Shown here: positions 24,013-40,251 of the stretch, in pieces
Position numbering within the stretch: the first letter of the stretch is position 1
How the letters are laid out: each line of letters begins with the position of its first letter
Assembly: GCA_030041955.1 (NCBI GenBank)
Contig: JASIAO010000105.1
Coordinates: 1 to 62,806, forward strand
Origin: Acidobacteriaceae bacterium
GTDB lineage: Bacteria; Acidobacteriota; Terriglobia; Terriglobales; Acidobacteriaceae
Direction: 5' to 3'
Length of the DNA: 62,806 nt
Translations under genes and position numbers: made by a program
The notes under the pieces: generated by a model
What the model saw: the letters and a program-made list of their open reading frames with translations, nothing else
What the model was told of the DNA's origin: nothing
Database searches by the model: none

Positions 24013-24869
24013 CAGAACTCCTCCCTTCCAAAGAACGGTTCGATTGCAGAGAAGCGAAACACAGGCCCCTGTTTGCAAATAAAGACCGGACCAAGCTGGC
24101 AATGTCCGCAAAAGCCGATGGCGCATTTCATGTTGCGTTCCATCGAAACGTAAATTGCCTCTTTGGGAATGCGCCGGGCCATGGCCTCATAGATTACGAA
24201 GCGCAACATGATCTCCGGGCCGCAGGAGAACACCAGCGTCCTGCGGTGGTCGAGCCGCGTCCGATAGAAGGCCATGGGGATGACGCCAACCTGACCCTTC
24301 CAGGTTTCGTCGGCGCGATCCACGCTGACGAACATCTCAATTCCGCCGTCTTGCCAGTTCTCGAATTCGCCTGTGTAGAGCAAGTCCTGAGGGGTGCGGC
24401 CGCCGTAGAGAACCAGCACGCGACCGAAGCGATCACGGTGGTGCAATGTTTCCAGGATGACCGGCCGGAGCGGCGCCAGGCCGATTCCACCGGCGACGAT
24501 CATCAGGTCCTTGCCTTCGGCCAGCTGCATCGGCCAGGGATTGCCGTATGGCCCGCGCAGCCCGACTACGTCTCCAATCTTCAGGCGCCCGATGGCACGC
24601 GTCACACTGCCGGCATAGCGAATGGTGTGCTCCATGACCCTGGGTGTGCCGGGATCGGAGCAGATAGAAATGGCGACTTCGCCGAACCCGGGCAGGCAGA
24701 TCATGTTGAACTGCCCGGCGGCGAAGCCGAGCGGCGCATCGGGATCGGTGTATTCGAGCGAGAACGTGGAAATGCCGTAGGCCTCCGGACGAATCGCACG
24801 TACAACCGCAGGGCGCGGCAGCATTGGATCCATCATCGTAACTGGCTCGACCATGGTTACCTGGCTCAT
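24012..24869 (-). CDS. hyhG: Hydrogenase gamma subunit: FAD/NAD(P)-binding oxidoreductase with C-terminal 2Fe-2S motif
   Basis: FNR-like fold (GQFNMI.., MIVAGGIGLAPL) and C-terminal CAIGFCGHCQLG. ATGA overlap with hyhB. Confidence 0.85.
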   Translation of the reverse strand: MSQVTMVEPVTMMDPMLPRPAVVRAIRPEAYGISTFSLEYTDPDAPLGFAAGQFNMICLPGFGEVAISICSDPGTPRVMEHTIRYAGSVTRAIGRLKIGDVVGLRGPYGNPWPMQLAEGKDLMIVAGGIGLAPLRPVILETLHHRDRFGRVLVLYGGRTPQDLLYTGEFENWQDGGIEMFVSVDRADETWKGQVGVIPMAFYRTRLDHRRTLVFSCGPEIMLRFVIYEAMARRIPKEAIYVSMERNMKCAIGFCGHCQLGPVFICKQGPVFRFSAIEPFFGREEF

Positions 24870-25993
24870 CGTGCCCCCGCTGTCCGGAGCCTGTTCAGCT
24901 CTTCGGTGATATCGATGCCCACGGGACACCACGCAATGCAGCGGCCGCATCCCACGCAGCCGGAACGCCCGAACTGGTCGATCCATGCCCCGAGCTTGTG
25001 GGTCATCCACTGGCGAAAGCGAGACTTGATGGTTGGCCGGCTGTTGCCGCCATGCACGTGGGAAAAGTCGAGAATGAAGCAGGAATCCCACACGCGCGTG
25101 CGCGTCGTGCGATTTCCGTTCAGATCGCTGTGGTCTTCGACGGTGGAACAGAAGCAGGTCGGGCAGACCAGCGTGCAGTTCGCGCAGGAAAGGCAACGTT
25201 CGGCGATTGTGTCCCAGTAAGGATGGTCGATTCTCTCGTAAAGCAACTGAGGCAGATCGCTGGTCGTCACCTGGCGCTGGATCAGGCGTTCGGTGCGCTG
25301 CGTGACCTGCGCGGCGCGGCCAAGGTCAAAGGCGCTGGCCGGTTGCCAGTCGATGCCCGCAAGAGCATTGGAGCCGGCCTCCGAGCCGATCTCCATTACA
25401 AATGAATCCGGAAGTTCCGTTAATGCGAGGTCGAATCCGGAGCGCACGTGCGGGCCCGTGCTCATGGACGTACAGAAGCAGGTCGACGCCGCAGTGCTGC
25501 AATTGACGGCAAGCATGAAAACCCTCTGGCGACGGTGCGCATAATGAGGATCGCCAATCGTTCCATTAACGAACACCTCATCCTGGAGGGCGATGGCATG
25601 CAGATCGCACGACTTCACCCCGATAAAGGCAAAGGGCGGCGAATCGTCTGACGCTGGAGTGAAGATCCAGCCGTCACCGTTTCTCCTCGCAGTCAGCAAA
25701 TCGGAGCGCGCCGGAAAGAGGTAACGCTTCCACGAATCGGGCCCGACCGTGCACGCAAAATAATCGGCAGAGTGCGTTGGCAGAAGTCGCGAATTTCCAG
25801 CTTTCTGGTCGAGCAACCGCCCGATCGGAAGCTCGGAAATCTTTTCGAGCGTGCCGAGAATCACGCTGCCATCGCGCACAGTCGGACCGATCAGGCGGAA
25901 GCCGCTGGCCCTCAGATTGTCCAGCACCTGCTGCAGCGTGGGTTTAGGGAAGATCACCGTTGCGGAAACCCGGGGCGTGGGAGAACCGGCCAT
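24866..25993 (-). CDS. hyhB: Hydrogenase beta subunit: 4Fe-4S dicluster protein
   Basis: CLSCANCTLVCPTCFC and CVGCGRCIAWCP ferredoxin motifs. First gene of the four-gene operon. Confidence 0.8.
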   Translation of the reverse strand: MAGSPTPRVSATVIFPKPTLQQVLDNLRASGFRLIGPTVRDGSVILGTLEKISELPIGRLLDQKAGNSRLLPTHSADYFACTVGPDSWKRYLFPARSDLLTARRNGDGWIFTPASDDSPPFAFIGVKSCDLHAIALQDEVFVNGTIGDPHYAHRRQRVFMLAVNCSTAASTCFCTSMSTGPHVRSGFDLALTELPDSFVMEIGSEAGSNALAGIDWQPASAFDLGRAAQVTQRTERLIQRQVTTSDLPQLLYERIDHPYWDTIAERCLSCANCTLVCPTCFCSTVEDHSDLNGNRTTRTRVWDSCFILDFSHVHGGNSRPTIKSRFRQWMTHKLGAWIDQFGRSGCVGCGRCIAWCPVGIDITEELNRLRTAGAR

Positions 25994-26771: not shown

Positions 26772-27752
26772 TCAATCAAGACGCGTGAATTTCGCTGGGA
26801 CATTCTCGAAGTCGGAGCGTCCGAGGCCGCGTTCTTCCGCCAGCTTCAGCCACAGCAAGGAATCGCTCTCCAGGTTCCAGAAGGCTTTGGCTGCGTATGC
26901 GTCCAGAGCGACGGGGTCGGTGCCCGCGATCAGCGTCTTTTTCAGCGCGACATCCTCCGGGTTGCCCCCGGTGGGGCCATTCCGCAGCAGCACGCGGTAG
27001 CAGTCGATCAGAGTCAGACTGGGCAGCATGAAGGCAGCCAGATCGACGAGGCTTTGGTGAATCTGCTGATGCAGCCTGTTCCGCTGGCCGCCGAGGATGC
27101 CGTACCAGTTCTTAAAGCCGAGCGTGACGCCGGTTAGCCCGTGATGCTTGGCAATGGGGATGTTGATGAGCTTATCGGCCTCGAGGAATGGCTCGAAGAC
27201 GGGCCAGCTTTGCAGAACAACGCCGCCGAGATCGACTTCGCGGAAACGCGCGGGATCGGGAAGGATGACTTCGGCCCCTTCGACACTGGCCGCGGCCTGA
27301 ATGCCGGAGCGGCGAAAACAGCGCTCGGCTTCGTTGCAGCTCACGTCGGTGACAACCACGCGCCCGGCGCCGGCCTGCCGGCACTGGCGAACCACTTCGG
27401 CGACAATGTCGGGATTTGTATTGGCCGCCTGTTCCGGGGTGCGGTCCCAGGCGATGTTGGGCTTGAGAACAACAACGTCATTGCGCGCGATGAAGCGGCT
27501 GATGCCTCCGAGGTCGACGAAGGCCTGGCGAACCAGAGCGCGGGGATCGTCGCCCTGGACCACCACCATCTGAGGAAGCGCGACGCTGGCCGGAACCGTG
27601 TGATCGCGCTTCGCGTATGCGGCGGCGGTGGCAACGGGGCGCGTGCTGCGCTCCGCAAGCCAGAACGCCGCTCCAGCAGTAACCGCTCCTGCTCCGGCAA
27701 CACGCAAAATCTGCAGCATCGCTTCGCGTCGGGTAATGTGGGTATCGGACAT
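26772..27752 (-). CDS. DUF362 domain protein with Tat-type signal peptide
   Basis: ATG at 27752 gives MSDTHITRREAMLQILRVAGAGAVTAGAAFWLA. The DUF362 core follows (VVLKPNIAW...INIPIAKHH..TGVTLGFKNWYG). Confidence 0.75.
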   Translation of the reverse strand: MSDTHITRREAMLQILRVAGAGAVTAGAAFWLAERSTRPVATAAAYAKRDHTVPASVALPQMVVVQGDDPRALVRQAFVDLGGISRFIARNDVVVLKPNIAWDRTPEQAANTNPDIVAEVVRQCRQAGAGRVVVTDVSCNEAERCFRRSGIQAAASVEGAEVILPDPARFREVDLGGVVLQSWPVFEPFLEADKLINIPIAKHHGLTGVTLGFKNWYGILGGQRNRLHQQIHQSLVDLAAFMLPSLTLIDCYRVLLRNGPTGGNPEDVALKKTLIAGTDPVALDAYAAKAFWNLESDSLLWLKLAEERGLGRSDFENVPAKFTRLD

Positions 27753-27786
27753 ATTCTTCACCGTCCCTCTGGTGTTGTCCTGCTCT

Positions 27787-28260
27787 TCAGAGCCGCCCCT
27801 CGATGCCATGAGCCAGGGCCAGCAGAGCGTCAGCGGGTGCCGGCTCGTACGTTGTGATCCTGACCAGCGTGGGTCCTTTGCGAAAAACCACGCTCTGCAA
27901 GTAAATCCGTCCGGCATCACCCAGCGGCGCCGTCTGGCCTGAAGCGGGTTCGTCATCGAGAATCTTCTTTGCCCCCGTCGCGGTCTTCATGGTGTATACG
28001 TCCACCACAGCTTCCAGCTTTCCCTGGAATTTGTAATCGGACGTCGCTGCGGAGACGACCCCCGCACCGATATACTCGTCCGCACCGCCGTCGAGGTATT
28101 GCCACAAGGTGTCAGCGGTGTAAGTGCGTGTTGGGCCGGTTTTCTCCCATCCAGAGACCAGACCCGAAGAAGGGAACGGATCGGCGGCCTTTCTCCTGCA
28201 ACCCGCTGCGGCACTCACGGCGACAATCAATACGCCAATACAAATCCATCTTGTCTTCAC
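27787..28260 (-). CDS. Lipoprotein of unknown function
   Basis: The GTG start overlaps the polyferredoxin stop (GTGA). The lipobox is VKTRWICIGVLIVAVSAAAGC. The GWEKTGPTRTYTADTLWQYLDGGADEYIG motif recalls an uncharacterised DUF family that I cannot name with certainty. Confidence 0.6.
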   Translation of the reverse strand: MKTRWICIGVLIVAVSAAAGCRRKAADPFPSSGLVSGWEKTGPTRTYTADTLWQYLDGGADEYIGAGVVSAATSDYKFQGKLEAVVDVYTMKTATGAKKILDDEPASGQTAPLGDAGRIYLQSVVFRKGPTLVRITTYEPAPADALLALAHGIEGRL

Positions 28261-29918
28261 GATTGCGCCTTTTCCTTTCTTCGAGTGAGCAGAATCTGGT
28301 TGCTGGGCGATCGGCTCTCCCCGATGCTGGTGACATAAACAGCCGGATGCTCCTGGAGGGGGCAGGCATATTCGCAGGCTCCGCAACCGACACACAGGCT
28401 GGGATCGACGTGTGGCTGCTTCAGCAGCTTGAGGTTGCCAGCGGCGTCCGGGACCTCCACTTGTTCGAGATCAATGGCCTTGGGCGAGACCGGGCACCAT
28501 TCTTCGCAGACCACACAATCGGTGGCCAGTGCCCAGGGCAGGCAACGGCTGCGATCATGGAAGGCTGTGCCCAGGCGCACGGGCTGCGAGTTCTGCTGGC
28601 CGACGCCGACTACCCAGCCCTTTTCGCGGGGCGTGATGTTCCAGATGGCGCCGGTCGGACAGACTTCGGAACAGAGAACGCAGCTTGGCTCGCAATAGCC
28701 GATGCGCGGCGCCAGTACCGGCGTCCACAGGCCTTCCAGGCCCGCTTCGGCGAAAGCGGGCTGCAGCGCATTGTTGGGGCAAACCTTCATACACTCGCAG
28801 CAGCGAATGCAGCGGCCGAGGAACTCCGTTTCCTCGAGTGCGCCGGGCGGGCGGATGAGATGCTCGTTCCGGCTCCTGCCCATTGCCGTTTCGGCGCGCA
28901 GCAGGGGGACTGCGGACAGCCCGGCAGCCAGACCAGCCAGAGCTTTGCGCCGCGGCAGATTCGGGCCCGCGACTTCAGCTCGCTTTCGGAAGAACCGGAA
29001 TCGCAGACTGTGTTGGGGGCAGACGTCGACACAGTTCAGGCACAGGAGGCATTCGGCCTTGTGCCAGGGCGCGGTTCCGATGGGATCGTCGCCTCCCTGG
29101 CAGTGCAGCAGACAGCGATTGCAGTTGTCGCAGCTTGCAGCCTCCTTATGCAGACCGAGGATCGACCAGCGCGCGGCGAAGCCGAGCAGCGCCCCCAAGG
29201 GACACAGCGCGCGACACCAGAACCGCGTTACGCGCAGGTTGAGGGCGAGCAGGACGATCAGGATCAGGCCCAGCAGCGCGCCCAGTTGGAAATGCGGCTG
29301 CCGGAAGTTCAGGACCGTCGCGCTCAGAACTGCGTGAAGGATGGCGGCCGGCGCACGTACTGCGCCGATGGGACTGTGTTCCAGTGGCGTGAGTGCCGCA
29401 TTGGCCGCGTAGTTGAAGGCGGGAAGGATCGACAGCGTCAGCGAACGCACCAGCAGGCTGAAGGGATCGAACCAACCGGCAATTGCGCTGCCGCAAAGGG
29501 CCGCTGCCAGAAGCGCGACCAGAATCGCATACTTGGTTCGCTGCCACGGTTTGTAGCGGTTGGATTCGATCCACTGCCGGCCGCGCTTGCGTTCGGATTG
29601 GAGATTCCCAAAGAAGTGGTGGACGGTGCCTATCGGGCAAATCCAGCCGCAGAAAAAGCGGCCCAGGAACATGACCGGCAGAACTATCAGCAGCGACCAT
29701 GCCAGGCCGCGATAGAGAGCGTGCGTCGCAAGAGCATTTACGAGCGCCGCCAGCGGATCAAACTCAAAAAAGAGGCGAACCGGCCAACGCATCTGTATTT
29801 CGCCCGTCGCGCCAGTGGCACCGCGAAATCCAGTCCTGACAAGAAGCAACAGGAAGAGGAGAAAAAAGAATACCTGCGACGCGCGCCGCAGGTGGATAAG
29901 TCGAATCCTCACAAGCAT
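28257..29918 (-). CDS. Membrane polyferredoxin (NapH/MauN-like N-terminal TM domain plus multiple 4Fe-4S domains)
   Basis: The TM region carries CGWICPIGT and FWCRALCPLG motifs. Six CxxCxxCxxxCP-type clusters follow (CDNCNRCLLHC, CLLCLNCVDVCP, CIRCCECMKVCP, CVLCSEVCP, CVVCEEWCP, CVGCGACEYACP). The preferred start is ATG 29918 (MLVRIRLIHLRRASQVFFF). The raw ORF extends to a GTG at 30071. Confidence 0.8.
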   Translation of the reverse strand: MLVRIRLIHLRRASQVFFFLLFLLLLVRTGFRGATGATGEIQMRWPVRLFFEFDPLAALVNALATHALYRGLAWSLLIVLPVMFLGRFFCGWICPIGTVHHFFGNLQSERKRGRQWIESNRYKPWQRTKYAILVALLAAALCGSAIAGWFDPFSLLVRSLTLSILPAFNYAANAALTPLEHSPIGAVRAPAAILHAVLSATVLNFRQPHFQLGALLGLILIVLLALNLRVTRFWCRALCPLGALLGFAARWSILGLHKEAASCDNCNRCLLHCQGGDDPIGTAPWHKAECLLCLNCVDVCPQHSLRFRFFRKRAEVAGPNLPRRKALAGLAAGLSAVPLLRAETAMGRSRNEHLIRPPGALEETEFLGRCIRCCECMKVCPNNALQPAFAEAGLEGLWTPVLAPRIGYCEPSCVLCSEVCPTGAIWNITPREKGWVVGVGQQNSQPVRLGTAFHDRSRCLPWALATDCVVCEEWCPVSPKAIDLEQVEVPDAAGNLKLLKQPHVDPSLCVGCGACEYACPLQEHPAVYVTSIGESRSPSNQILLTRRKEKAQS

Positions 29919-30056
29919 GGATCGGAGATGCTCCTTTCCTGCCGGAGTGCAAGCGCGCCCTTGGACTGTGGCGAAAACGCAATGCGGCAAAGCGCGGGCA
30001 GCGCGTTCCCAGTCAATGCCCTGGTTCAAGGCTGGCTGGCGTTTCCATTCGCTGTC

Positions 30057-30072
30057 AGTGACCGCCGTCACC
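30057..30072. promoter_or_regulatory. CRP/FNR-type palindrome AGTGA-CCGCCG-TCACC (site 3 of 5)
   Basis: GTGA-N6-TCAC core in the divergent gap between the polyferredoxin operon (ATG 29918) and the SpeE-fusion gene (start 30161). Confidence 0.4.
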
Positions 30073-30160: not shown

Positions 30161-32521
30161 GTGACCCTTCATTTCATCTCCGTTGCGCGCGTCAGGCCGG
30201 CCGCCATCGCGGCGAAGGCGGCTCCGCTACTCGTCGGATTCACTGCGGTCGTCGGGCAGATCGTACTCATGCGGGAAGTCATCATCCTGTTCAGTGGGAA
30301 CGAAATCTCGATGGGGATTGCACTCGCCGCCTGGCTCGTTTGGACGGCGGCCGGAAGCGGCCTTGCCAGCCGGATGCGAACAGGGCGCGTGAGCGCCCGC
30401 CATACGGTTGCGGCACTCCAATGCCTCGCCGGGGCCAGCCTGGTGCCGACCGTGTGGATGCTGCGCGCGGGAAGGGCTGCATTCCAGACGGTGCCGGGTG
30501 AGCTGATTGGCCCGCTACCGATGCTGATCACCACTCTTGTCTGTCTGAGTGTGTTTTGCATTCTCTCGGGGGGCCTCTTCTTGGCCGCCGCGCGCATGGT
30601 CCAGCAGGAGAGCGCTGTTTCGGAGCGAGTCGCCGTGAGCTGGGCTTATGTGCTGGAGGCCGCAGGGTCGGGATTGGGTGGGGTTCTGTGCAGCGTACTG
30701 CTGCTGCGCTTCTTCGGATCGTTCCAGATTGCGGGAATCGTCGCGCTCGTGAACCTGGGCGCGGCGGCGATCCTCTTTTTTCCACTCAAAGGCTGGAAGG
30801 TTGCGATTGCCGCGCTGGCTGTCGCGGCTGTGGCCATTCCCTGGGCGGCCTGGGTTGCGCACAGGCTGGACACGTCCGCGGAGCAGCGTCTGTGGCAGGG
30901 ATTCCACGTCGTGCAATCGCGGAACACGATCTATGGAAACCTGACTGTCGTCGCGACCGGCGATCTGCAAACGATTTACGACAATGGCGTGAAGCTGGCC
31001 AGCATTCCGGATGAGGCCGCAGCCGAAGAGGCCGTTCATTATGCGCTGCTGGAGCATCCTGCGCCGAAAAGCGTTTTGCTGATCGGGGGCGGCGCGAACG
31101 GCAGTGTTCAGCAGGCACTGCGACACCCATCCGTTCGGCGACTCGACTACGTTGAGCTCGATCCCGCGCTGGTGGAAATGTCTCGGCAGATTTCTCCCGG
31201 CTTCGCTCCTTCTCTCTCCGATGCACGCGTGCGGGTGCACATTGCGGATGCGCGGCTTTGGCTGAAGACGACCCCGGAACGGTTCGACGCCATCGTGGTC
31301 GATCTGCCGGATCCCGAGACCGCGCAGCTAAACAGGTTCTACACGGAGGAGTTTTTCCGCTCTGCTCGCGATCACCTCGCACCGGGAGGGATTCTCGGAT
31401 TTCAGGTGCACTCGTCGGAGGAAACCATCAGTCCGGAAATGGCCGATTTCCTGCGCTGCATCGACCGCACGGTACGCGAAGTGTTCCCCTGGGTCGCGAT
31501 CATTCCGGGCGACACGATGCATTTCTTCGCAACGGCGCAGCCAAATGTTGTTACGGAAGACCCGCGGGTTCTGATTGCGAGACTGCAAAGCAGGGGCCTG
31601 CAAACGCAGTATGTGCGGGAATATTTCATCCCCTTCCGGATGATGCCCGACCGCATGGCGCAGGTTCACGCGGTGCTGCAACCTTTGCCGGGAACTCCGG
31701 TCAATCGCGACTTCCGGCCGATTGCCTACTACTTCGATGCGGTCCTGTGGGGCTCCCAGTTCCGCTCGGGATTTTCTCGCGCTTTCGAAGCTGCGGCGCA
31801 GGTCCCTTTTGTCTGGCTGCTCGCAACCGTGGTCATCCTGCTCCTCGCCACTCTCGGCGCGGTGCGATCGGCCGAAAGACACAGGCCCCAGCGAACGGCA
31901 GCGCTGGCGTGCACTGCCCTGACCGGCTACACCCTGATGGCGCTGCAGATCCTCCTGCTGTTCTCGTTCCAGTCCGTGTACGGCTACGTGTATCACGAGC
32001 TTGCTGTGCTCATCGGTCTGTTCATGGCGGGGATTGGGCTGGGAAGCTGGCTCGCGATCCGGCGCATTGCCTGCGCTGATCCCGCTTCATTGATCCGCAC
32101 CGTTGCCGCAAATCAGTTTTTGCTCGCGGCGTCCGCACTGCTGCTGCTGCTGGTGGTTGCTCTGCTTGCACAACACCCTGGGACGCAGAGCGCGCTGTGG
32201 ATCGCGCAACTCGTCTTTCCTTTCCTGGCGCTGCTTTGCGGAATTCTGGGAGGGTATCAGTTTCCGCTGACGAACGAGATTTGCCTTCACGACGCGGTCA
32301 CCCCAGCGCGCACAGGGGTGGTTTACGCGGTGGACCTGCTCGGGGGCAGCGTGGGCGCATTGCTGTTGAGCGCCTACCTCATCCCGGTGTTCGGTTTTTG
32401 GAAAGCAGCATGGTTCACCGCGGCCGTGAGCCTGGCCCCGGCATTTCTGGCCGTATGGGCGGGCCGGGATACAACGATGGCGGCGGAGTTTACCGCTTCT
32501 CCCCAAACACAACAGCGGTAA
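30161..32521 (+). CDS. Polytopic membrane protein fused to a spermidine-synthase-like (aminopropyl/methyltransferase fold) domain
   Basis: 786 aa. By eye there are about 7 hydrophobic helices, then a SpeE-like core (VLLIGGGANGS..VELDPALVEMS..FDAIVVDLPDPETAQLNRFYTEEFF), then about 7 more helices. GTG start. Confidence 0.8.
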   Translation: MTLHFISVARVRPAAIAAKAAPLLVGFTAVVGQIVLMREVIILFSGNEISMGIALAAWLVWTAAGSGLASRMRTGRVSARHTVAALQCLAGASLVPTVWMLRAGRAAFQTVPGELIGPLPMLITTLVCLSVFCILSGGLFLAAARMVQQESAVSERVAVSWAYVLEAAGSGLGGVLCSVLLLRFFGSFQIAGIVALVNLGAAAILFFPLKGWKVAIAALAVAAVAIPWAAWVAHRLDTSAEQRLWQGFHVVQSRNTIYGNLTVVATGDLQTIYDNGVKLASIPDEAAAEEAVHYALLEHPAPKSVLLIGGGANGSVQQALRHPSVRRLDYVELDPALVEMSRQISPGFAPSLSDARVRVHIADARLWLKTTPERFDAIVVDLPDPETAQLNRFYTEEFFRSARDHLAPGGILGFQVHSSEETISPEMADFLRCIDRTVREVFPWVAIIPGDTMHFFATAQPNVVTEDPRVLIARLQSRGLQTQYVREYFIPFRMMPDRMAQVHAVLQPLPGTPVNRDFRPIAYYFDAVLWGSQFRSGFSRAFEAAAQVPFVWLLATVVILLLATLGAVRSAERHRPQRTAALACTALTGYTLMALQILLLFSFQSVYGYVYHELAVLIGLFMAGIGLGSWLAIRRIACADPASLIRTVAANQFLLAASALLLLLVVALLAQHPGTQSALWIAQLVFPFLALLCGILGGYQFPLTNEICLHDAVTPARTGVVYAVDLLGGSVGALLLSAYLIPVFGFWKAAWFTAAVSLAPAFLAVWAGRDTTMAAEFTASPQTQQR

Positions 32522-34001
32522 ACAGGAAGATATCGGTGTCGCTGTCCTTCCAGCACCCGGGGTGCATACCGGCTTTCATGCAGGTTTCTTCCAGGAACCG
32601 GGTGCGATCCCATTTGGCATCCACGGGAACCTGGGGCAGCAGGAGACCCTGGTATTCGCCATTCTTCATCAGCAGGCCGTGCTCACCGATCCTGATCTGT
32701 TGCAGGTCGAGGACTCGGCGCAGAGGAGAAAGAACGGAGATTTCGTATTGGAGCCGCGGCAGCTCGGACGCCGCGACCGGGCGAAATCGCGTGTCGCGCA
32801 GCGCGGCCAGCGTTGCCGTGTCGCGGACAGCCATATAAAGCGGCTTGATGGCTGAGGTGTAGCCGACACAGCCACGCAACTCTCCCGACTCTCTGAGCGT
32901 GACGAACACACCGCGCTCCTGATTGAGGTCATCGTCACCCGCTGGCGGCGGCTCGTACGGTTCCCCCTGGCGCACGGCGTACTCGACGGAGATGCGTGCG
33001 ATGGAGAGCAGCTGGTTCCTGTCCGCGGGCGACAGCGAGAAGAGCTGTTCGACCATCTGCCGCTCCCCGGTTTTCACCAGCGCAACCGCGCTGTATCCGA
33101 CGACCCGGGAGCGATCGCCGCTGGTATCTCCGGAATTGGCGTAGCGCAACACCTGAGCCTGGTCCGCTCCCATGCGCTCGGCGGCGATCATGGCGGCTAC
33201 GATCGGGGCCCCGCCACAGGCTTCCCAGACACGCGTCTGGAAGTTCTGGGACATGCTGAAGTAGTCCCACTCCTCGATCGCCTGCAGCGTCTTATGATCG
33301 ATTTTCTCTGCCTCGTCGTACGGGTGATAGTGGGACAGGTCGGAACTGGCGACGATCAGCGTGTCGCCATCGTGAATCAGCTTTGCCAGAGCCACGCCCA
33401 GCGCCCGGCTGCTTTCATAGTTCTGATCGCCCATGACAACGGGCACGAGCGTGAAGTTGCCCAGCACATGCTGCAGCCACGGCAATTCCACCTCCACCGC
33501 GTGCTCCGTGCCCTGAGGCGTCGGCAAGTGCCCACGATCGGAGAGACGGATCGAGGGGTTCGATTTGGCCAGTTTCCTCGCAAAGTCTTTGTCGACCGGA
33601 ACTGTCCCGAGCGGCGTGACATATCCATCGCCGTCGTAAACGGAGGTGAAATCGAAAGCTTCGAAATGCGATGGAGCAATGACGACCACGCGCGCATAGT
33701 GCCGGCCCCTGAGGGCGGCGTAAGTCCAGGCCGCAACCGGTCCGGAATAGGGATAGCCGGCGTGCGGCGCGACAACGGCGACGATGGAGCCATGGATCTC
33801 CGGCGGCGCGGCCTGCGCCAGCATGGCGTCCATCATGGCCGTGAGCGCTTTCGGGTCCGCCGGATAAAAGCTGCCCGCGACTCCAGCGGGCCGAAGCTTT
33901 TCGAGGTCAGCCGCCCACCCGGCTCGGACGGCCGGGATCGCTGCGATACCGAACAGCAGTGCTGTCATGAAACCACTTCCGATCCGCGTTCCGCGTTTCA
34001 T
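32490..34001 (-). CDS. amrB: AmmeMemoRadiSam system protein B (MEMO1-like) fused to protein A (AMMECR1 domain), with N-terminal Sec signal peptide
   Basis: ATG at 34001 (GGGGAGGG RBS) gives MKRGTRIGSGFMTALLFGIAAIPAVRA|GWA. The Memo motifs follow (AGSFYPADP, VAPHAGYPYSGP, SSDLSHYH), then AMMECR1 (GVFVTLRESGELRGCVGY...LLPQV). Confidence 0.85.
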   Translation of the reverse strand: MKRGTRIGSGFMTALLFGIAAIPAVRAGWAADLEKLRPAGVAGSFYPADPKALTAMMDAMLAQAAPPEIHGSIVAVVAPHAGYPYSGPVAAWTYAALRGRHYARVVVIAPSHFEAFDFTSVYDGDGYVTPLGTVPVDKDFARKLAKSNPSIRLSDRGHLPTPQGTEHAVEVELPWLQHVLGNFTLVPVVMGDQNYESSRALGVALAKLIHDGDTLIVASSDLSHYHPYDEAEKIDHKTLQAIEEWDYFSMSQNFQTRVWEACGGAPIVAAMIAAERMGADQAQVLRYANSGDTSGDRSRVVGYSAVALVKTGERQMVEQLFSLSPADRNQLLSIARISVEYAVRQGEPYEPPPAGDDDLNQERGVFVTLRESGELRGCVGYTSAIKPLYMAVRDTATLAALRDTRFRPVAASELPRLQYEISVLSPLRRVLDLQQIRIGEHGLLMKNGEYQGLLLPQVPVDAKWDRTRFLEETCMKAGMHPGCWKDSDTDIFLFTAVVFGEKR

Positions 34002-34024
34002 CCACGTACCCTCCCCGCGCGTGC

Positions 34025-35260
34025 TCAGACGTGCCACACCCCCGGAATGAGCTGCCCGCAGTAAGGGCAGGTTCCCTTGCGGATCAGCATCTGCGTTACT
34101 TCCAGCCCCATGCGCTGCACGAGGATGTGTCCGCACTTCGGGCAATATGTGCTTTCGGCAGGGTGGCCGGGCACATTGCCGATGTACACGTAGTGCAGTC
34201 CCTCCGCGTCGGCAATCTGTTTGGCGCGTTCCAGTGTCGGCACCGGAGTGATGGGAAGGTTCTTCAGAAGATATTCGGGATGAAACTGCGAAAAGTGCAA
34301 AGGAACGTCGGCTCCGACGTTGTTCCTGACCCACTGCGCCAGGCCGCGGAATTCTGCGTCGCCATCGTTCAGCGTCGGCACCACAAGATAAACGATCTCC
34401 AGCCATTTGCCGGTCTTGTGCAGCGTGACGATCGAATCGAGCACAGGCTTGAGCTGGCCGCAAACCACCTGCCGGTAATACGACTCGGAGAAAGATTTCA
34501 AATCGATCTTGACGGCATCCATCTTGCCGTACGCCGCTCGCAGCGCTTCGTCCTGGATGTAGCCGTTGGAAACAACAATGCTGCGGATGCCTGCGGCATG
34601 ACCGGCATCCGCCGTATCCATCAGGTATTCGATAAAGATCACCGGCTCGCTGTAGGTGTAGGCGATGGTGGGGCAGCTATATTGCGTTGCCAGCTGGGCG
34701 ACTCGTTGCGGCGGTGCGTAGTCTGCCGGCACCTGTTCCGGGCGCACCTGGGAGATGTCCCAGTTCTGGCAGAACTTGCAGTTGACGTTGCAGCCGGCTG
34801 TGGCCAGCGAGAGGGCGAGCGTACCGGGAAGATAGTGGAAGAAGGGTTTCTTCTCGATCGGGTCGATATGTGCGGCGCACACCCGCGAGTGCACCAGCGT
34901 GTAATAGGTCCCGCCGCGGTTCTCGCGAACCCCGCAATAGCCGCGCTCGCGATCGCCCACGCTGCATTCGCGCGGGCACAATTTGCACTTGATCCTTCTG
35001 TTCGGAAGCTTCTGGTAGAAGCGCGCTTCCACCGTGAACTGCGAGTCGTCCTGGTTCTGCGCAGCCGGTGACAGAGACATTGCGTCCAGAGGATGTGCCA
35101 TGGTGGAGATGGTTCCGGCGGCTCCCGCGCAGAGAGCGCAGCGCAGAAACGAACGCCGGTCAGGGAGACACGATGTGCCTGCGGAAGCGAATCTCTCGCT
35201 GTCGAGGAACCCCGCTCCCGCCAAACTTGAATCGGGCTGCAAATAATGTTCGCGTGACAT
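34025..35260 (-). CDS. amrS: AmmeMemoRadiSam system radical SAM enzyme with N-terminal twin-arginine (Tat) type signal
   Basis: The radical SAM cluster motif CNVNCKFCQNW and the upstream CKLCPRECSVGDRERGYCGVRENR segment are typical of this family. The N-terminus carries DRRSFLRCALCAGAAGTISTMAHP. GGAGG RBS lies 7 nt upstream. Confidence 0.85.
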   Translation of the reverse strand: MSREHYLQPDSSLAGAGFLDSERFASAGTSCLPDRRSFLRCALCAGAAGTISTMAHPLDAMSLSPAAQNQDDSQFTVEARFYQKLPNRRIKCKLCPRECSVGDRERGYCGVRENRGGTYYTLVHSRVCAAHIDPIEKKPFFHYLPGTLALSLATAGCNVNCKFCQNWDISQVRPEQVPADYAPPQRVAQLATQYSCPTIAYTYSEPVIFIEYLMDTADAGHAAGIRSIVVSNGYIQDEALRAAYGKMDAVKIDLKSFSESYYRQVVCGQLKPVLDSIVTLHKTGKWLEIVYLVVPTLNDGDAEFRGLAQWVRNNVGADVPLHFSQFHPEYLLKNLPITPVPTLERAKQIADAEGLHYVYIGNVPGHPAESTYCPKCGHILVQRMGLEVTQMLIRKGTCPYCGQLIPGVWHV

Positions 35261-35272
35261 CGCTCGCCTCCA

Positions 35273-36292
35273 TCACGCCAGGTCTGTCTCGACCCTCTCG
35301 ATTCGCTGCGGATCGTTGATGCCAAGACGATGCTGCGGGTCCGCCGCCGTGGCCAGATAGCGGGGGGCTCGCTCCTCGGCTTCGAGCGCCTTCAGTCCTT
35401 CTTCTGCCCGCTTGCGCTCGATCATCTGCCATCCGGTGGTGTCGAGGGCCACAGGATCCTGCGACGCCAGCAGAGCGTTGGGTTGCCAGCTGTATTGGGG
35501 CTTGTAAGCAGGTCCTCCCTCGTAGCACGCCGTGGTCGCGTCGCAGATGGACAGACGCATCCTGCTGCGGATTTCCGGCAGCATGTTCACATCCGCGATA
35601 TAGGGATCGCAGCCGTTGGGGTGGTATTTGTTGGGATTGTGGATAGTGCCGTACATGTTCTTGAGCGCGATGGTGACGCCCGCGCCATCGTGATCCTTCA
35701 GCACCGGAACGTTGATCAGGACGTCGCAGCGCTGCGTGAGAATCTTCGATAGCCGGCTGCCAACGCTGCCCCATGTTGCCAGATCGTCTTCGTAACCCAT
35801 CCGGTCAGTGCCGAAGCACTGGACCCGATTTCCCGCGATACAGACATGAAAGCCGGCGCGTTCCAGTTCATCGGTGTCGCGATCCCAGATCACGATGTCA
35901 GCAGCTCGGATTCCGGCTTGCTGCAGCCGCTCGCAAATCGCTTCGGCCAACCGCGGGCTGCCGGAAAAGCCGCGGCCACCCAGAGCGTTTACCTTCAGTC
36001 CAACCATTTGCCCCGGACGCACGATCTTCTTCCAGGCCTCGTCCGGGCGACTGACCCGGAGAAGGGTCTCCATCGTCCGGTCCAGCAGGCTCAGCATGCG
36101 TTGCGAATCCACCGTGGAGTCCGAGCCGCGCAATTGAGGATCCTGCGCAATGACCACCCTGGATCGGATCAGCGGGAGATTCTGTGCGCCAGCAGCGGAA
36201 TGGGAGATTCCGTCGCCCGCAGCGACAGCAACGGCACTTGCCAGGCAATTCTTCAGGAATCTTCTTCGCCCCGTGATGGGCTCCTGGCGCAT
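35273..36292 (-). CDS. DUF362 domain protein with Tat signal peptide
   Basis: MRQEPITGRRRFLKNCLASAVAVAAG is followed by the DUF362 core (LKVNALGG...INVPVLKDHDGAGVTIALKNMYG). First gene of the operon with amrS and the Memo-AMMECR1 fusion. Confidence 0.8.
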   Translation of the reverse strand: MRQEPITGRRRFLKNCLASAVAVAAGDGISHSAAGAQNLPLIRSRVVIAQDPQLRGSDSTVDSQRMLSLLDRTMETLLRVSRPDEAWKKIVRPGQMVGLKVNALGGRGFSGSPRLAEAICERLQQAGIRAADIVIWDRDTDELERAGFHVCIAGNRVQCFGTDRMGYEDDLATWGSVGSRLSKILTQRCDVLINVPVLKDHDGAGVTIALKNMYGTIHNPNKYHPNGCDPYIADVNMLPEIRSRMRLSICDATTACYEGGPAYKPQYSWQPNALLASQDPVALDTTGWQMIERKRAEEGLKALEAEERAPRYLATAADPQHRLGINDPQRIERVETDLA

Positions 36293-36522: not shown

Positions 36523-37827
36523 TCAAGGAGACCTTCCCAGGCGCATGCGGCGCTCAGGATCGTTGGCCCGCGTCCCGGAAACGGGCGCGAACAGATGTTC
36601 GTAACGATTGTGTGGATTCCACAACATCCAGCCATCGCTTCCGAATTCTGTTGCGGCGCGAATCTGGCTGTGAACCGCAGCGGCATCGAACGCCCGCCGA
36701 TCGAAAGCATAGTCCCGAAATGCCTGAATCCATGGACGGAAGCGGTCTGCAGGCAGGTTGACGCGGCGCCGCGCGTTTTCGAGGGTCTGCAGGATCACCT
36801 CAGAAGGGTATGCGACAGGATTTCGATAATTGGGGATACCGTACTGGAAGCAGGACGGATAGAGCATCGGTGACACGTAGTCCACAATGTTAGCGATACG
36901 TTCAAGCTGCTGGCCGATCCCGGTATCATTCGCATTCCAGCACACATAGCCAAAGATATCGACAGCAAGGTACACATTGAATCTGGCAAGTTGACGCTTT
37001 GCCTCGTTCAGAAATCCCCCGATCGCTTCGATCCGCGCAACTTCCCCGGCCGCGCGCGCAAAGCGAAGTTGGCCGGCGAAATCCGGAAAGCGGACATAAT
37101 CGAACTGGATCTCGTCAAAACCTGCCTGTGCAGCCTCCCGAGCTATGGCAATGTTGTAGTTCCACACTTCGCCCTCGAATGGATCGGTCCATGCGAGGCC
37201 CTCGCGATCGCGATAGAGCTGCCCGTTGGCGCGGTGTACGGCCAGATCGGCACGGGCAGTAGCAAGGGGCGTGTCCTTGAAAACGACGATGCGGGCGATC
37301 ACGTAGACGCCTTCGCTGTGCAGGGTACCCACCAGGAATGCCAGGCTGGGAATGGTGGTGATCTGGCGCGCGCCATCTATCCTGGCAAGAGGTACCGCAC
37401 TGGGATAAGGAATGAGGCCGCGGTCCCCCTTAACGTCGATGACCAGCGAGTTGATAAAGCCCTGGTGGATCAATCTCAGAGCGGCGCTCCGAAGCGGTCT
37501 GGAGCCGATGCCGTAGACCGAGAGGTAAAGCGCTCGTGGCGTGAACGGCGCAAGAGGAAGCCTGCCACCAAGGGCCGCGACCTGAGCCGATGTGTAGCTC
37601 GCAGCGCGATAGCCGGGCGCGCGAACTGCGATCATCTGTGTTTCGCCCGCGACGCAGTAGAGACCTTCTACGTCCGCGGCGATCACCTGTTCTCCCACGT
37701 TAATGATGGCGGCTGGAATCCCGGTGCCGGTTGTGGCATCGACCACGCGCCCCCGGAAAGCACACGCGCCAGAGCAGCGAAATGAAACCGCAAGAGTCAG
37801 GGCGAAGCTGAGGATGGCGCTTCTCAT
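36523..37827 (-). CDS. Putative glycoside hydrolase-like protein (DUF4015 / GHL family), secreted
   Basis: Signal peptide, carboxypeptidase-regulatory-like N-terminal segment, then a TIM-barrel-like DUF4015 pattern (FDEIQFDYVRFP, SPMLYPS, WIQAF). Confidence 0.6.
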   Translation of the reverse strand: MRSAILSFALTLAVSFRCSGACAFRGRVVDATTGTGIPAAIINVGEQVIAADVEGLYCVAGETQMIAVRAPGYRAASYTSAQVAALGGRLPLAPFTPRALYLSVYGIGSRPLRSAALRLIHQGFINSLVIDVKGDRGLIPYPSAVPLARIDGARQITTIPSLAFLVGTLHSEGVYVIARIVVFKDTPLATARADLAVHRANGQLYRDREGLAWTDPFEGEVWNYNIAIAREAAQAGFDEIQFDYVRFPDFAGQLRFARAAGEVARIEAIGGFLNEAKRQLARFNVYLAVDIFGYVCWNANDTGIGQQLERIANIVDYVSPMLYPSCFQYGIPNYRNPVAYPSEVILQTLENARRRVNLPADRFRPWIQAFRDYAFDRRAFDAAAVHSQIRAATEFGSDGWMLWNPHNRYEHLFAPVSGTRANDPERRMRLGRSP

Positions 37828-38612
37828 GGCGTGGCCCTTTCGGCTGCGGGATGCAGGAGCCTGCTCAACGCCTCGCCTCGGTCTCTGTCGGAGACAGCGA
37901 TACGAGGGATTGCGAAGCGGTTGCCTCGTGTTCTGACGAGGCCGCCGGTGTAGGCAAAGGCAGCAATGTATCCAGCATGGGCCGCGGCCTGTTCCAGTTC
38001 CGGATCGACAATGCCAAAGGGCCAGGCCAGAAGGTTAACCTGAACGCCGAGCTGTTGTTCGAGCACTGCGCAGGAGTGGTTGAGCTGGAATGCGACGAAT
38101 GCCTGATAGTCTGCAGGGCTCCGGCGTGTTTTCTCCCGGTGAAAATTGGGGTGCCAGTAGGTATGCGACTGCACGTCAACGAGGCCGGAACGCTGCATTT
38201 CCCGGAGTTCGTCCCAGGTGAGGGCGTAGGAAGCTCTGGAAATCGCCGATGGATAGATGAAGAGGGTTACGGGAATCCGCTGCTGCCGGATGACCGGAAA
38301 CATCTCTGTGAATACGGAGCGATGACCGTCGTCCACGGTGATGGCTACGGCACCGGGCTCCGGCGGGCGCCCGTCCCGCACAAACTGTATGACCTCGGCC
38401 AGCGGCACGATTTTGTAACCATGTTCGGCGAGCCAGGCCAATTGACTTTTCAACGTTGAAGTTTTTACGGTTGTGGGCCCAGCTTCCTGCGGATTGAAGC
38501 GATGGTAGACAAGGACCGGCACCGCCACGGAATCGAGTTTGTCCTGTCCCGGATCCGACAAGGGCATCCCCATGCTGAACGCAGCAACGAGGATGAGCGC
38601 CCGACCCAACAT
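37824..38612 (-). CDS. Polysaccharide deacetylase (CE4, PgaB/IcaB N-terminal-like)
   Basis: Preferred ATG 38612 (MLGRALILVAAFSMG). VLVYHRF, ITVDDGHRS and QSHTYWHPNF are CE4 motifs. The stop overlaps the downstream gene start. Confidence 0.75.
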   Translation of the reverse strand: MLGRALILVAAFSMGMPLSDPGQDKLDSVAVPVLVYHRFNPQEAGPTTVKTSTLKSQLAWLAEHGYKIVPLAEVIQFVRDGRPPEPGAVAITVDDGHRSVFTEMFPVIRQQRIPVTLFIYPSAISRASYALTWDELREMQRSGLVDVQSHTYWHPNFHREKTRRSPADYQAFVAFQLNHSCAVLEQQLGVQVNLLAWPFGIVDPELEQAAAHAGYIAAFAYTGGLVRTRGNRFAIPRIAVSDRDRGEALSRLLHPAAERATP

Positions 38613-38935
38613 GCAGGCCTCAATCGGATCGGCTTCCAGTTCTGTTCTCCGATCGCACCCGCATCTTTGACGTTCAACTCCAGAGAAGCGAAGCGAGAGC
38701 AGGAATCGGGGGCGATTGCTAAAGTGCAGTGCTGCAGCAATCTCCAGCACATGATTCCATGGTCGAGTGCGAAGACTTTTGTCTCATCAAAAAAACAATA
38801 TCGACACCGGGCTGTTGCGCGCCAGCGGTGTCCTGCTATCGATCGCAGGCGAGACGACGCGGTCCGCAATCCGCGCCACGAATTCAATACCAACAGTTCA
38901 GCGCCCGGTCGCTTGGTCTCTGGTCAGCGGCGGCT

Positions 38936-39664
38936 TCACTGGGGAGTCGCACGCTCTCGGGAGCCCGAGGCTCGCGGGAAGTGGAGGATCCATGTGACCG
39001 CTGCTCCCAGCGCAGCGCTCAAAGGCACGACGGCGGTGTGCCACACGAGCACGTGGGCGGCCTCGAAATTGGGGCAATGCAACTCCAGCATAGCCACGCC
39101 GGCAATGCCGCCGAGGGTGCCCGCTGCCAATCCGGCAGAAACAGGGTTGAGAGCGACGCCGCGACGCAGCAGCAGCAGCCAGCTGAGCAAGGCGGCCGGG
39201 ACGGCATAGAGGAGCCCGGTGAGCAGGCAGGCGACGCCGACGGGAACAAAGTGCTCGACATGACAATCGCGAAAGAGGAATGCAAAGATGGCCAGCAACA
39301 CCGCGCTGCCGAAAGCCAAAAGCGCACCCGAAGAGAGACGACGCCGGCTGCCGGGGATCATTTCGTGGACGAATGCTGCGCCTGCCACCCATATAAGGAG
39401 GACGAGCGTAGAAAAGACGAGCGAGCGCTCGAGGATATCCATTTTTTCGATTCCGAAGAACCCTGCATGGGCCGCGCCCGCCACAGAGACGGCCGCGCAG
39501 ACGAAGAACAGTCCACTCGTGATCGCCCACGTGGACGGCAGCGGACGAACCGGCCGGAGCGAGGGCTTGATCGACTCGGCAACCCGCCGCAGCGTCTCCG
39601 GCTGCGGATCGTGCGCGGCGCGCGCAGCCCTGTTCAGGACATCGTCAATCTCTTCGTCTTTCAC
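38936..39664 (-). CDS. NrsF-type (DUF1109) six-TM anti-sigma factor
   Basis: The GTG start overlaps the sigma stop (GTGA). Short cytoplasmic N-terminus, then about 6 hydrophobic helices with conserved Cys/His (..ELHCPNFEAAHVLVWH..). Confidence 0.6.
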   Translation of the reverse strand: MKDEEIDDVLNRAARAAHDPQPETLRRVAESIKPSLRPVRPLPSTWAITSGLFFVCAAVSVAGAAHAGFFGIEKMDILERSLVFSTLVLLIWVAGAAFVHEMIPGSRRRLSSGALLAFGSAVLLAIFAFLFRDCHVEHFVPVGVACLLTGLLYAVPAALLSWLLLLRRGVALNPVSAGLAAGTLGGIAGVAMLELHCPNFEAAHVLVWHTAVVPLSAALGAAVTWILHFPRASGSRERATPQ

Positions 39665-40251
39665 GACAGCCCGCTTCTCCCCCCTCGCGATCCGATTGCG
39701 TGCACGGTCAGCGTCTTTCTCAATTTCTCGTAGGCCCGGTGTGCTTTCTGCTTGACTGCGCCCACCGTGGAAGAAGTGGCTCGCGCCACCTCCTCCAGTG
39801 ACATTCCAGAAACCTTCAGCATGGCGACTATCTCGCGCTGGCTCTCGGAAAGGGGAGCCAGCAGTGCGTCCAGATCGTGAGCCGGGCCGAACTCCGCAGG
39901 CGTTGCCGCCGCAGTACCGGACATCGCCTCCAGTTCGCGCTCGCCGGCCAGGGTGCGCATCGACTTGCGATAGTGATCGACTCGAACGTGGCGGGCAATG
40001 GCATAGAACCACGGCAGCGCCGGCTCGCCGGGGCGATAGGTATGCCTGACCCTGTGGATGCGAAGCCACGTGTCCTGCAGCAGATCGTCAGCATCGGCGC
40101 GGCTGGCGGATTGCGCGCTGAAAAACCGATGCAATTGCGGCCCAATGCGATCGATGAGCGCCGCCGCGGCCGCGAAATCTCCCTGCTGATAGAGGGCCAT
40201 CAGTGTCTCGAGATCGCTGTCCGCGTGCATGCGATGGATGGGTTCCTGCAA
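39661..40251 (-). CDS. ECF sigma-70 factor (SigF/ECF16-like)
   Basis: Region 2 DADDLLQDTWLRIH...PWFYAIARH and region 4 LSESQREIVAMLKVSGMSLEEVARATSSTVGAVKQKAHRA. Confidence 0.85.
   Translation of the reverse strand: MQEPIHRMHADSDLETLMALYQQGDFAAAAALIDRIGPQLHRFFSAQSASRADADDLLQDTWLRIHRVRHTYRPGEPALPWFYAIARHVRVDHYRKSMRTLAGERELEAMSGTAAATPAEFGPAHDLDALLAPLSESQREIVAMLKVSGMSLEEVARATSSTVGAVKQKAHRAYEKLRKTLTVHAIGSRGGRSGLS

Follow-up and report, generated by a model that had tools for sequence, protein, structure and literature searches.

An AmmeMemoRadiSam system with predicted export signals, linked to transmembrane redox modules and a spermidine-synthase-like membrane protein

We analyzed a 62,806-nucleotide stretch of DNA (the window), which the names of its homologs place in the Terriglobales, Acidobacteriota, and which encodes an AmmeMemoRadiSam system whose radical S-adenosylmethionine (SAM) enzyme, AmrS, carries a putative twin-arginine translocation (Tat) signal. 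Three tightly packed genes on the minus strand form the operon, in the order DUF362 protein (35273-36292), amrS (34025-35260) and a Memo-AMMECR1 fusion (32490-34001). The ATG of amrS lies 12 nucleotides past the stop codon of the upstream DUF362 gene and follows a GGAGG by about 6 nucleotides. The encoded AmrS of 411 amino acids is matched by TIGR04337 with 386.3 bits (E = 1e-115; cut-off 220 bits) over residues 79-410. The fusion gene begins 23 nucleotides past the amrS stop codon, with GGGGAGGG upstream of its start, and encodes an AmrB-AmrA protein of 503 amino acids, in which a Memo-like domain (TIGR04336, residues 37-307, 273.7 bits) is joined to an AMMECR1 domain (TIGR04335, residues 330-499, 175.3 bits); the Pfam models Memo and AMMECR1 match as well. 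Convergent with the operon, a plus-strand gene (30161-32521) encodes a membrane protein of 786 amino acids with about 14 helices and a central domain of spermidine-synthase fold, while a NapH-NapG fusion polyferredoxin is encoded on the minus strand at 28257-30071.

Since the TIGR04337 match begins only at residue 79, residues 1-78 of AmrS constitute an N-terminal extension. This extension reads ...SCLPDRRSFLRCALCAGAAGTISTMAHPLDA followed by MSLSP, after which come CKLCPREC and CNVNCKFCQNW. It contains the motif D-R-R-S-F-L-R, with the RR pair at residues 35-36, and a hydrophobic region at about residues 39-53 (CALCAGAAGTIS), which is mild (maximum 10-residue Kyte-Doolittle mean of 1.65). The twin-arginine motif and hydrophobic stretch that the sequence-only reading had seen ahead of the usual core are accordingly present. 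The motif departs from S/T-R-R-x-F-L-K at the residue before the RR pair, where Asp replaces Ser/Thr, and the basic residue after the core is kept. About 25 residues past the RR pair lies a conserved P-L-x-A, a loose fit to the -3/-1 rule, and the signal is probably cleaved after HPLDA, close to residue 60. With TIGR01409 (TAT_signal_seq), the N-terminal peptide reaches 18.1 bits, above the cut-off of 16.7. In an AlphaFold2 model of AmrS, residues 70-411 have predicted local distance difference test (pLDDT) values above 93. Residues 1-68 lie outside the modelled fold, with residues 1-31 and 47-68 disordered and a lone helix at residues 35-54 that starts at the RR pair. The basic residues of the signal sit N-terminal to the hydrophobic stretch, and the C-terminus of AmrS is therefore predicted to lie outside.

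To assess the conservation of this segment, we compared the 120 closest AmrS homologs (72-82% identity, 380-419 amino acids). All of them contain RR-x-F-[LMV], located 42-47 residues ahead of the CKLCPREC core. The position of the motif is independent of the start call, as the annotated starts lie anywhere from 6 to 38 residues upstream of the RR pair, and in many homologs the sole possible start is found 2-11 residues before it. With the columns anchored on the RR pair, entropy is nil (0 bits) at R, R and F and does not exceed 0.9 bits across L-D-R-R-S-F-L. It amounts to about 3-3.7 bits ahead of the motif and to 2-2.9 bits in the region of cleavage, and drops once more where the mature domain begins. 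Low entropy is also found at several positions of the hydrophobic region, and the conserved string is L-D-R-R-S-F-L-K-C-A..G-A-A. As read from the alignment, this profile is the tripartite pattern of a signal peptide. In a wider alignment of 46 sequences with 35-82% identity, R35, R36 and F38 are likewise invariant, and in other phyla the motif takes the form [ST]-R-R-x-F-[LI]-K. Because protein-level conservation of the RR motif and of the hydrophobic region extends across phyla, the RR segment is not a start-codon artefact, the possibility that the sequence-only reading had named as fatal to its claim.

A finished genome illustrates how start calls can mislead. AmrS of the cultured acidobacterium Occallatibacter riparius (CP093313.1; L085:11861-13084) is annotated as a protein of 361 amino acids that starts at an internal Met and is devoid of the RR segment. 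The in-frame sequence upstream of this Met, ...SDRRTFLQCALWAGAAQGMVGLAEPLGA..., includes the conserved Tat motif SDRRTFLQCAL. The deposited start is probably wrong, and the case shows that database start-codon calls can hide a Tat signal.

The catalytic core of AmrS is that of the family. The radical SAM motif reads C157-N-V-N-C161-K-F-C164 (C157-x3-C161-x2-C164), and its Cys residues are invariant in both alignments used for the core, A1 (38 sequences) and A4. An additional Cys motif lies N-terminal to it (C92/C95/C99/C109), and a 4-Cys ribbon is located at the C-terminus. All AmrS classes described below retain an intact radical SAM motif, the QNW that follows it, the GGE-like SAM-binding motif YSEP and the additional Cys motifs towards either end. 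Since the cluster and SAM-binding motifs are intact, the AmrS proteins with export signals look like working radical SAM enzymes. A sequence search of the PDB gave no match for AmrS or for DUF362. The closest solved fold to AmrS was that of the Escherichia coli pyruvate formate-lyase activating enzyme (PFL-AE, 3CB8; target-normalised TM-score 0.82, root-mean-square deviation 2.5 Å over about 250 residues), and matches to PFL-AE hidden Markov models (HMMs) are weak. The likeness is one of fold only, as AmrS reaches 55.8 bits with TIGR02493 compared with a cut-off of 231.75. Unlike PFL-AE and the other glycyl-radical activases, AmrS has additional Cys motifs towards both ends and is not accompanied by a glycyl-radical enzyme; PFL-AE, moreover, is cytoplasmic. 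The modelled fold nevertheless hints at an activase-like action on a protein or peptide, for which the Memo-AMMECR1 protein would be one candidate.

To determine how widespread the N-terminal extension is, we searched 1.84 billion cluster representatives with a profile and obtained 1546 members of the AmrS family at E < 1e-30. Among the best 150 of these, about 34 diverse proteins of 365-460 amino acids contain [ST]-R-R-x-F-[LI] and a hydrophobic stretch. For the genomic context, one genome per species was scanned, which yielded 80 loci; four further loci and the window were added, and 84 species-level loci were counted. About 38 loci encode an AmrS with a Tat-like N-terminus. They belong to the Acidobacteriota, Eisenbacteria, Zixibacteria, KSB1, the Desulfobacterota and other delta-type lineages, the Planctomycetota, Omnitrophota, Verrucomicrobia, Bacteroidota (with a KR variant) and Myxococcota. 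In about 11 further loci, mostly from Omnitrophota, the N-terminus of AmrS is very hydrophobic and Sec-like (L024, L025, L026, L027, L033, L034, L049, L050, L053, L057 and L058). These N-termini mostly lack the RR pair (L034 begins with MRR...) and look like Sec signals or signal anchors. AmrS without an extension is found in 32 loci, including those of archaea, Gammaproteobacteria, Geobacter relatives and a second acidobacterial paralog group. We refer to the 51 of the 84 loci in which AmrS has a Tat-like or very hydrophobic N-terminus, or is nested among such proteins, as the exported clade; it spans about ten phyla. In a neighbour-joining tree of the catalytic core alone, from which the signal region had been removed, every signal-bearing AmrS falls into one clade apart from the 32 signal-less ones, with the exact 51 versus 32 split recovered in 68 of 100 bootstrap replicates. 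Because a tree of the core alone groups all signal-bearing proteins, the export signals mark an old subfamily and are no local accident.

Two variants within the Tat-type proteins deserve mention. In one subclade (L039, L047 and L055, and also P0249), some 30 residues that include a conserved CxxCH (e.g., DCLKCH) are inserted into AmrS about 11-13 residues ahead of the core. CxxCH is the signature of c-type haem attachment, which takes place only outside the cytoplasm; the insert could be independent evidence of location or a mere metal ligand. In L003, a distant Tat-type AmrS (48% identity) has neither a Memo nor an AMMECR1 neighbour. It is followed by a gene (L003:8193-8873) whose product of 226 amino acids has a Sec signal and matches no Pfam family, and it is preceded by a Cys-rich open reading frame of 71 amino acids (L003:6799-7014); these may represent a different exported partner set.

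The partner of AmrS also bears a signal. The N-terminus of the Memo-AMMECR1 fusion, MKRGTRIGSGFMTALLFGIAAIPAVRA followed by GWA, is composed of MKRGTR, the stretch FMTALLFGIAAIPA (12-residue Kyte-Doolittle maximum of 2.40) and VRA ahead of the G. It matches neither of the Tat models, TIGR01409 and Pfam TAT_signal, and has the features of a Sec-type leader. All 120 of the closest fusion homologs keep basic residues at the N-terminus and a strongly hydrophobic stretch, and most of them also have an A-x-A type site. Both the domain fusion and the Sec leader proposed from the sequence alone are thereby borne out. The comparative data support the view that the two signal peptides, of AmrS and of Memo-AMMECR1, are real, translated and under selection. 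The arrangement of amrS with a fused B-A gene recurs in L001, L002, L005 and L085.

We next compared the signals of AmrS with those of its partner in the 28 loci with an adjacent Memo gene and an intact 5' end. All 20 evaluable partners of a signal-bearing AmrS have a Sec or lipoprotein signal/lipobox, while six of the eight partners of a signal-less AmrS have none (Fisher's exact test, p = 7e-5; such p-values overstate independence, the loci being related by descent). The 20 include L053, in which the signal anchor of AmrS lies in another frame. In this locus a frameshift (L053:5100-5480) separates the signal-anchor/EAKYY segment from the Cys-rich core, reflecting an assembly error or a pseudogene, and with its discovery the locus was rejected as a case of an exported partner beside a signal-less AmrS. 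Similarly, the apparent Sec-like signal of the partner in L075 was rejected, as it belongs to a long stop-to-stop open reading frame in which the protein, judged by eye, starts directly at the domain. In L011 a stand-alone, signal-less AMMECR1 gene (L011:10599-11165) lies beside a Tat-type AmrS, in addition to a signal-bearing Memo-AMMECR1 fusion.

The membrane protein encoded next to the operon belongs to the family of fused major facilitator superfamily (MFS)/spermidine synthase proteins (NF037959; 71 bits, cut-off 40), and Pfam PF01564 is also matched. Its homologs have about 750-800 amino acids. A gene of this family adjoins that of AmrS or of the fusion in 26 of the 51 exported-clade loci, compared with none of the 32 cytoplasmic ones (p = 1e-7, again for loci related by descent), and outside the window it is often co-directional with its neighbour, with overlapping stop and start codons, in many phyla. 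The AlphaFold model (pLDDT 80.8, pTM 0.82) consists of seven helices, the domain and another six to seven helices. Foldseek aligned the domain with 1UIR (target-normalised TM-score 0.74); its matches were only to the soluble spermidine-synthase domain, and none was found for the helical bundles. Literature searches on this fusion family returned nothing relevant.

The protein shares with spermidine synthase and other polyamine aminopropyltransferases the fold of the domain, the glycine-rich loop and the Glu of VE[LM]D. In these enzymes, the Asp of GGGDGG contacts the aminopropyl amine of decarboxylated SAM, D-S-x-D-P holds the catalytic Asp, and the Glu of VE[LM]D binds ribose. None of the 23 homologs inspected has the Asp of GGGDGG; their loop reads GGG[VAILT][NGS]G, and the first Asp of D-S-x-D-P is Asn in most of them. 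The window protein, with GGGANGS and DLPDP at these sites, also lacks both aspartates, and differs from spermidine synthase further in that its domain is inserted between two 7-helix bundles and predicted to be periplasmic. Besides the glycine loop, the 23 homologs retain the Glu of VE[LM]D and a motif that reads NRFYTxEFF. This pattern suggests a protein that binds an adenosyl ligand and is no longer a transferase dependent on decarboxylated SAM. By a positive-inside estimate, which is crude, together with the odd helix count, the domain lies outside in 18 of 19 homologs.

A further group of linked genes concerns electron transfer. The NapH-NapG fusion polyferredoxin of the window is matched by the NapG model over residues 382-581, by the NapH model over residues 256-361, and by Pfam Fer4_5. 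Hydropathy places four transmembrane helices, which bear CX3CP motifs, ahead of an internal RRKALAGLAAGLSAVPLL, after which come the basic residues RAETAMGRSR and a NapG-like domain with multiple [4Fe-4S] sites. In RRKALAGLAAGLSAVPLL the RR pair stands just before the fifth transmembrane helix, whose hydrophobicity is low. The polyferredoxin of MLMS-1 is integrated into the membrane by both Sec and Tat, and a reporter placed after its fifth helix ends up outside (Tooke et al. 2017, PMC5449189). The window protein shares the features described for that polyferredoxin, a likeness of architecture. By this analogy, it is a candidate electron conduit across the membrane. Such polyferredoxins were found in the window and in L001, L005, L007 and L085. 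In the window, the adjacent minus-strand genes encode a DUF6599 protein (27787-28395; Pfam DUF6599, 37 bits) with a lipoprotein-type signal, ...VLIVAVSAAAGC, and a second DUF362 paralog (26772-27956; Pfam DUF362, 1e-52) with a Tat-like HITRREAMLQILRVAGAGAVTAGAAF and an uncertain start codon. The module of polyferredoxin, DUF6599 and second DUF362 recurs in L001 and L085.

The DUF362 protein encoded by the first gene of the operon (339 amino acids; Pfam DUF362, 2e-23) has itself a Tat-like N-terminus, MRQEPITGRRRFLKNCLASAVAVAAG, which scores 16.4 with TIGR01409, just below the cut-off. A DUF362 gene lies directly upstream of that for AmrS in 14 of the 51 exported-clade loci, all of the Tat class and from several phyla, compared with none of the 32 cytoplasmic loci, and the DUF362 proteins beside AmrS carry RRxFLK N-termini of their own. 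DUF362 is in the same Pfam clan as the lactate racemase LarA (PMC11770544).

In other lineages AmrS is fused to membrane modules. We found fusions of DsbD_2 to AmrS (P0264 and P0289), of FMN_bind and Fer4_5 to AmrS (P0261, NosR/NapH-like), of DsbD_2, FMN_bind and Fer4_5 to AmrS (P0278), of a beta-propeller to AmrS (P0248) and of a single transmembrane helix to AmrS, Memo and AMMECR1 (P0263). By nearest-neighbour score, all six belong to the exported clade. In the DsbD_2 fusions, the positive-inside estimate and the accepted topology of DsbD/CcdA both put the AmrS domain outside. In addition, a DsbD_2/CcdA-like gene encoding about 220 amino acids adjoins that of a Sec-like AmrS in six loci (L024, L027, L033, L034, L049 and L058). 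Unsupervised clustering of the neighbouring open reading frames revealed no further widely conserved family beyond those named here, save DsbD_2 in the Sec-like subclade. A recurring theme is that the exported clade, and only that clade, is coupled to devices that move reducing power across the membrane.

All sequence criteria applied here identify the system as AmmeMemoRadiSam: the three models (TIGR04337, TIGR04336 and TIGR04335) score well above their cut-offs, the genes are adjacent, and the Cys and SAM-binding motifs are the same as in canonical systems. It is set apart by the export signals and the accessory gene set. The exported clade differs from canonical systems by the Tat-type or Sec-like N-terminus of AmrS and the signal on the B-A partner, and it adds the spermidine-synthase-like protein, DUF362 and the transmembrane redox modules, of which the signal-less systems of archaea and Gammaproteobacteria have none. 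We know of no characterised radical SAM enzyme that acts elsewhere than in the cytoplasm or in the matrix of an organelle, compartments that provide SAM, reductants of low potential and Fe-S assembly. A twin-arginine signal before an Fe-S passenger is also found in NapG, the small subunits of hydrogenases and the polyferredoxin of PMC5449189; these proteins are, however, electron carriers, and none is a radical SAM enzyme in need of a nucleotide cosubstrate outside the cytoplasm. A periplasmic end-product is likewise served by the radical SAM chemistry of anaerobic sulfatase-maturating enzymes and of the HXS antiphage radical SAM enzyme (PMC13128918). These maturases are understood to act in the cytoplasm before their substrate is exported, whereas here the radical SAM enzyme itself has an export signal. 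Our literature searches brought up no radical SAM enzyme described as having a Tat or Sec signal or as being periplasmic or otherwise extracytoplasmic. Nor did they find an exported AmmeMemoRadiSam variant, although the main comparison of Memo systems (Burroughs et al. 2019) lay outside their coverage and a prior mention there is possible.

We therefore favour, with a probability of roughly 0.6, an extracytoplasmic and self-contained AmmeMemoRadiSam system in which AmrS would be exported by Tat and its partner by Sec, electrons would arrive through conduits, and the cosubstrate would be handled outside by a membrane protein. AmrS would fold and gain its Fe-S clusters in the cytoplasm and would then be exported through the Tat pathway by its RRSFL signal, while the Memo-AMMECR1 fusion would reach the same compartment by Sec. 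Together they would act on a periplasmic or membrane-surface substrate; to the example given by the sequence-only reading, an envelope or exported polymer, none of these data point directly. Reducing equivalents might be delivered in Acidobacteria by the NapH-NapG polyferredoxin, possibly with the Tat-signal DUF362 proteins, and in other phyla by NosR-like or DsbD-like modules. The 14-helix membrane protein might supply or handle SAM or by-products on the outer side. For the predicted export of AmrS and its partner and for an electron supply through linked conduits, the comparative evidence is strong. The handling of an adenosyl cosubstrate by the spermidine-synthase-like protein, to which only fold, topology and linkage point, is the weakest link. 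The exported clade may thus perform oxygen-sensitive SAM radical chemistry in the periplasm. The difficulty raised by the sequence-only reading, that the periplasm lacks both reductant and SAM, would be partly answered: a polyferredoxin is encoded nearby, and a membrane protein with a predicted outward-facing adenosyl-binding fold is linked to exactly the exported clade.

Several observations weigh against this interpretation. The signal and topology calls are based on motifs, hydropathy and two curated HMMs, and one of these, Pfam TAT_signal (PF10518), gives the N-terminal peptide of AmrS 16.3, below its gathering score of 22.7. We know of no SAM pool in the periplasm. Quinol-level electrons of the NapGH type lie several hundred mV above the typical potentials of radical SAM clusters and are too weak without energy input, and the linkage of the polyferredoxin was seen in Acidobacteria only. 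In the NosR-like fusion P0261, the helix count could put AmrS inside. In L037 and L071 the partner has a signal and AmrS has none, these AmrS proteins being N-terminally truncated yet nested in the exported clade. A separate AMMECR1 gene beside a Tat-type AmrS (L036:458-1138) encodes no signal; this protein and the signal-less AMMECR1 of L011 could be exported by hitchhiking on a partner or have a cytoplasmic role. Finally, the Sec-like AmrS and several of the fusion proteins have Sec-like or transmembrane N-termini in place of the RR motif and keep every Fe-S ligand. To our knowledge, the export of an Fe-S enzyme by Sec is without precedent, and no periplasmic Fe-S assembly is known to us. 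Either these domains face the cytoplasm, or an unexplained process is at work.

A related proposal, which we put forward only tentatively, is a self-sufficient periplasmic radical SAM module in which a PFL-AE-like AmrS would be exported by Tat, Fe-S, flavin or thiol conduits would provide the electrons, and the 14-helix protein would export or present SAM. In the Sec-type subclade of such a module, the Fe-S clusters might be assembled or maintained outside with DsbD-like help.

Among the alternatives, it is unlikely that AmrS is exported pre-loaded, with a reduced cluster and bound SAM, and fires about once, for instance to modify Memo-AMMECR1. Such a mode of action would need no periplasmic SAM supply, and it agrees with the established ability of Tat to move folded, cofactor-loaded proteins and with the closest solved fold, that of an activase whose substrate is a protein. 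Homology reveals no SAM transporter, and the spermidine-synthase-like domain lacks the catalytic aspartates and has no established ligand. However, the persistent linkage or fusion of polyferredoxin, NosR-like and DsbD_2 modules in several phyla argues for a continuing electron supply and hence repeated turnover, and the linkage of an outward-facing adenosyl-binding fold specifically to this clade points in the same direction.

Just as improbable, in our view, is that AmrS is membrane-targeted or anchored and acts at the cytoplasmic face on a membrane lipid or polyprenyl-linked substrate, which Memo-AMMECR1 would then process outside. Memo systems have reportedly been linked to isoprenoid modification. 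This arrangement would accommodate the part of the clade that keeps all Fe-S ligands behind strongly hydrophobic non-RR N-termini or polytopic membrane domains, the unprecedented nature of Sec export of an Fe-S enzyme, and the helix count of P0261, by which AmrS could end in the cytoplasm. By contrast, the motif of the window is a textbook Tat signal but for the Asp before the RR pair, with a weakly hydrophobic region and a P-L-x-A site, and its basic residues on the N-terminal side predict the C-terminus outside. The DsbD_2 fusions place AmrS outside by two estimates, and an exporter of reductant of the DsbD type would be needless for a cytoplasmic enzyme. An uncleaved anchor that faces the cytoplasm, which the sequence-only reading had itself considered, is thus disfavoured by the placement of the basic residues, by the signals on 20 of 20 partners and by the periplasm-directed redox modules of the DsbD and NapG types.

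Slightly less probable again is the export of AmrS for a role independent of SAM, e.g., as a redox or scaffold Fe-S subunit in a complex with Memo-AMMECR1, with no radical chemistry outside. It would agree with the lack of a periplasmic SAM pool known to us, and the several extra conserved Cys clusters of AmrS could carry electrons. However, CxxxCxxC, QNW and YSEP are as conserved in exported as in cytoplasmic AmrS, while their loss would be expected if SAM were not bound. That AmrS is an ordinary cytoplasmic enzyme with its true start at M54 or M61 is hardly credible: the 34 residues before the RR pair in the window and the annotation of the O. riparius homolog from an internal Met would fit, but the absence of any variation at R, R and F among 120 homologs, the conservation across phyla, the well-placed GGAGG, the short distance of the upstream ATG to the preceding gene and the homologs whose only possible start lies just before the RR pair all speak against it.

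If an activity of AmrS in the periplasm is confirmed, it would open a new compartment for radical SAM enzymology across a phylogenetically broad clade. A means of moving SAM across the inner membrane would be implied as well, and the search for the substrate of Memo, AMMECR1 and AmrS would narrow to envelope, membrane-surface or exported molecules. O. riparius offers a practical handle, as it has the whole gene set, and the signals are suited to standard Tat reporter assays.

The window contains further genes on both sides of the system. Upstream of the operon, on the minus strand (36523-40069), are those for a signal-bearing DUF4015 protein (a putative glycoside hydrolase), for a polysaccharide deacetylase and for an anti-sigma protein of the NrsF-like kind. 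In related loci none of the three is linked to the system, and the DUF4015 protein and the deacetylase were rejected as parts of it, being unlinked in L001, L002 and L085. Just beyond the second DUF362 gene lies a four-gene cluster on the minus strand (21923-25993), not adjacent in these same three loci, which resembles a cytoplasmic [NiFe] hydrogenase and comprises an Fe-S subunit, an FAD/NAD-binding subunit and the small and large subunits.

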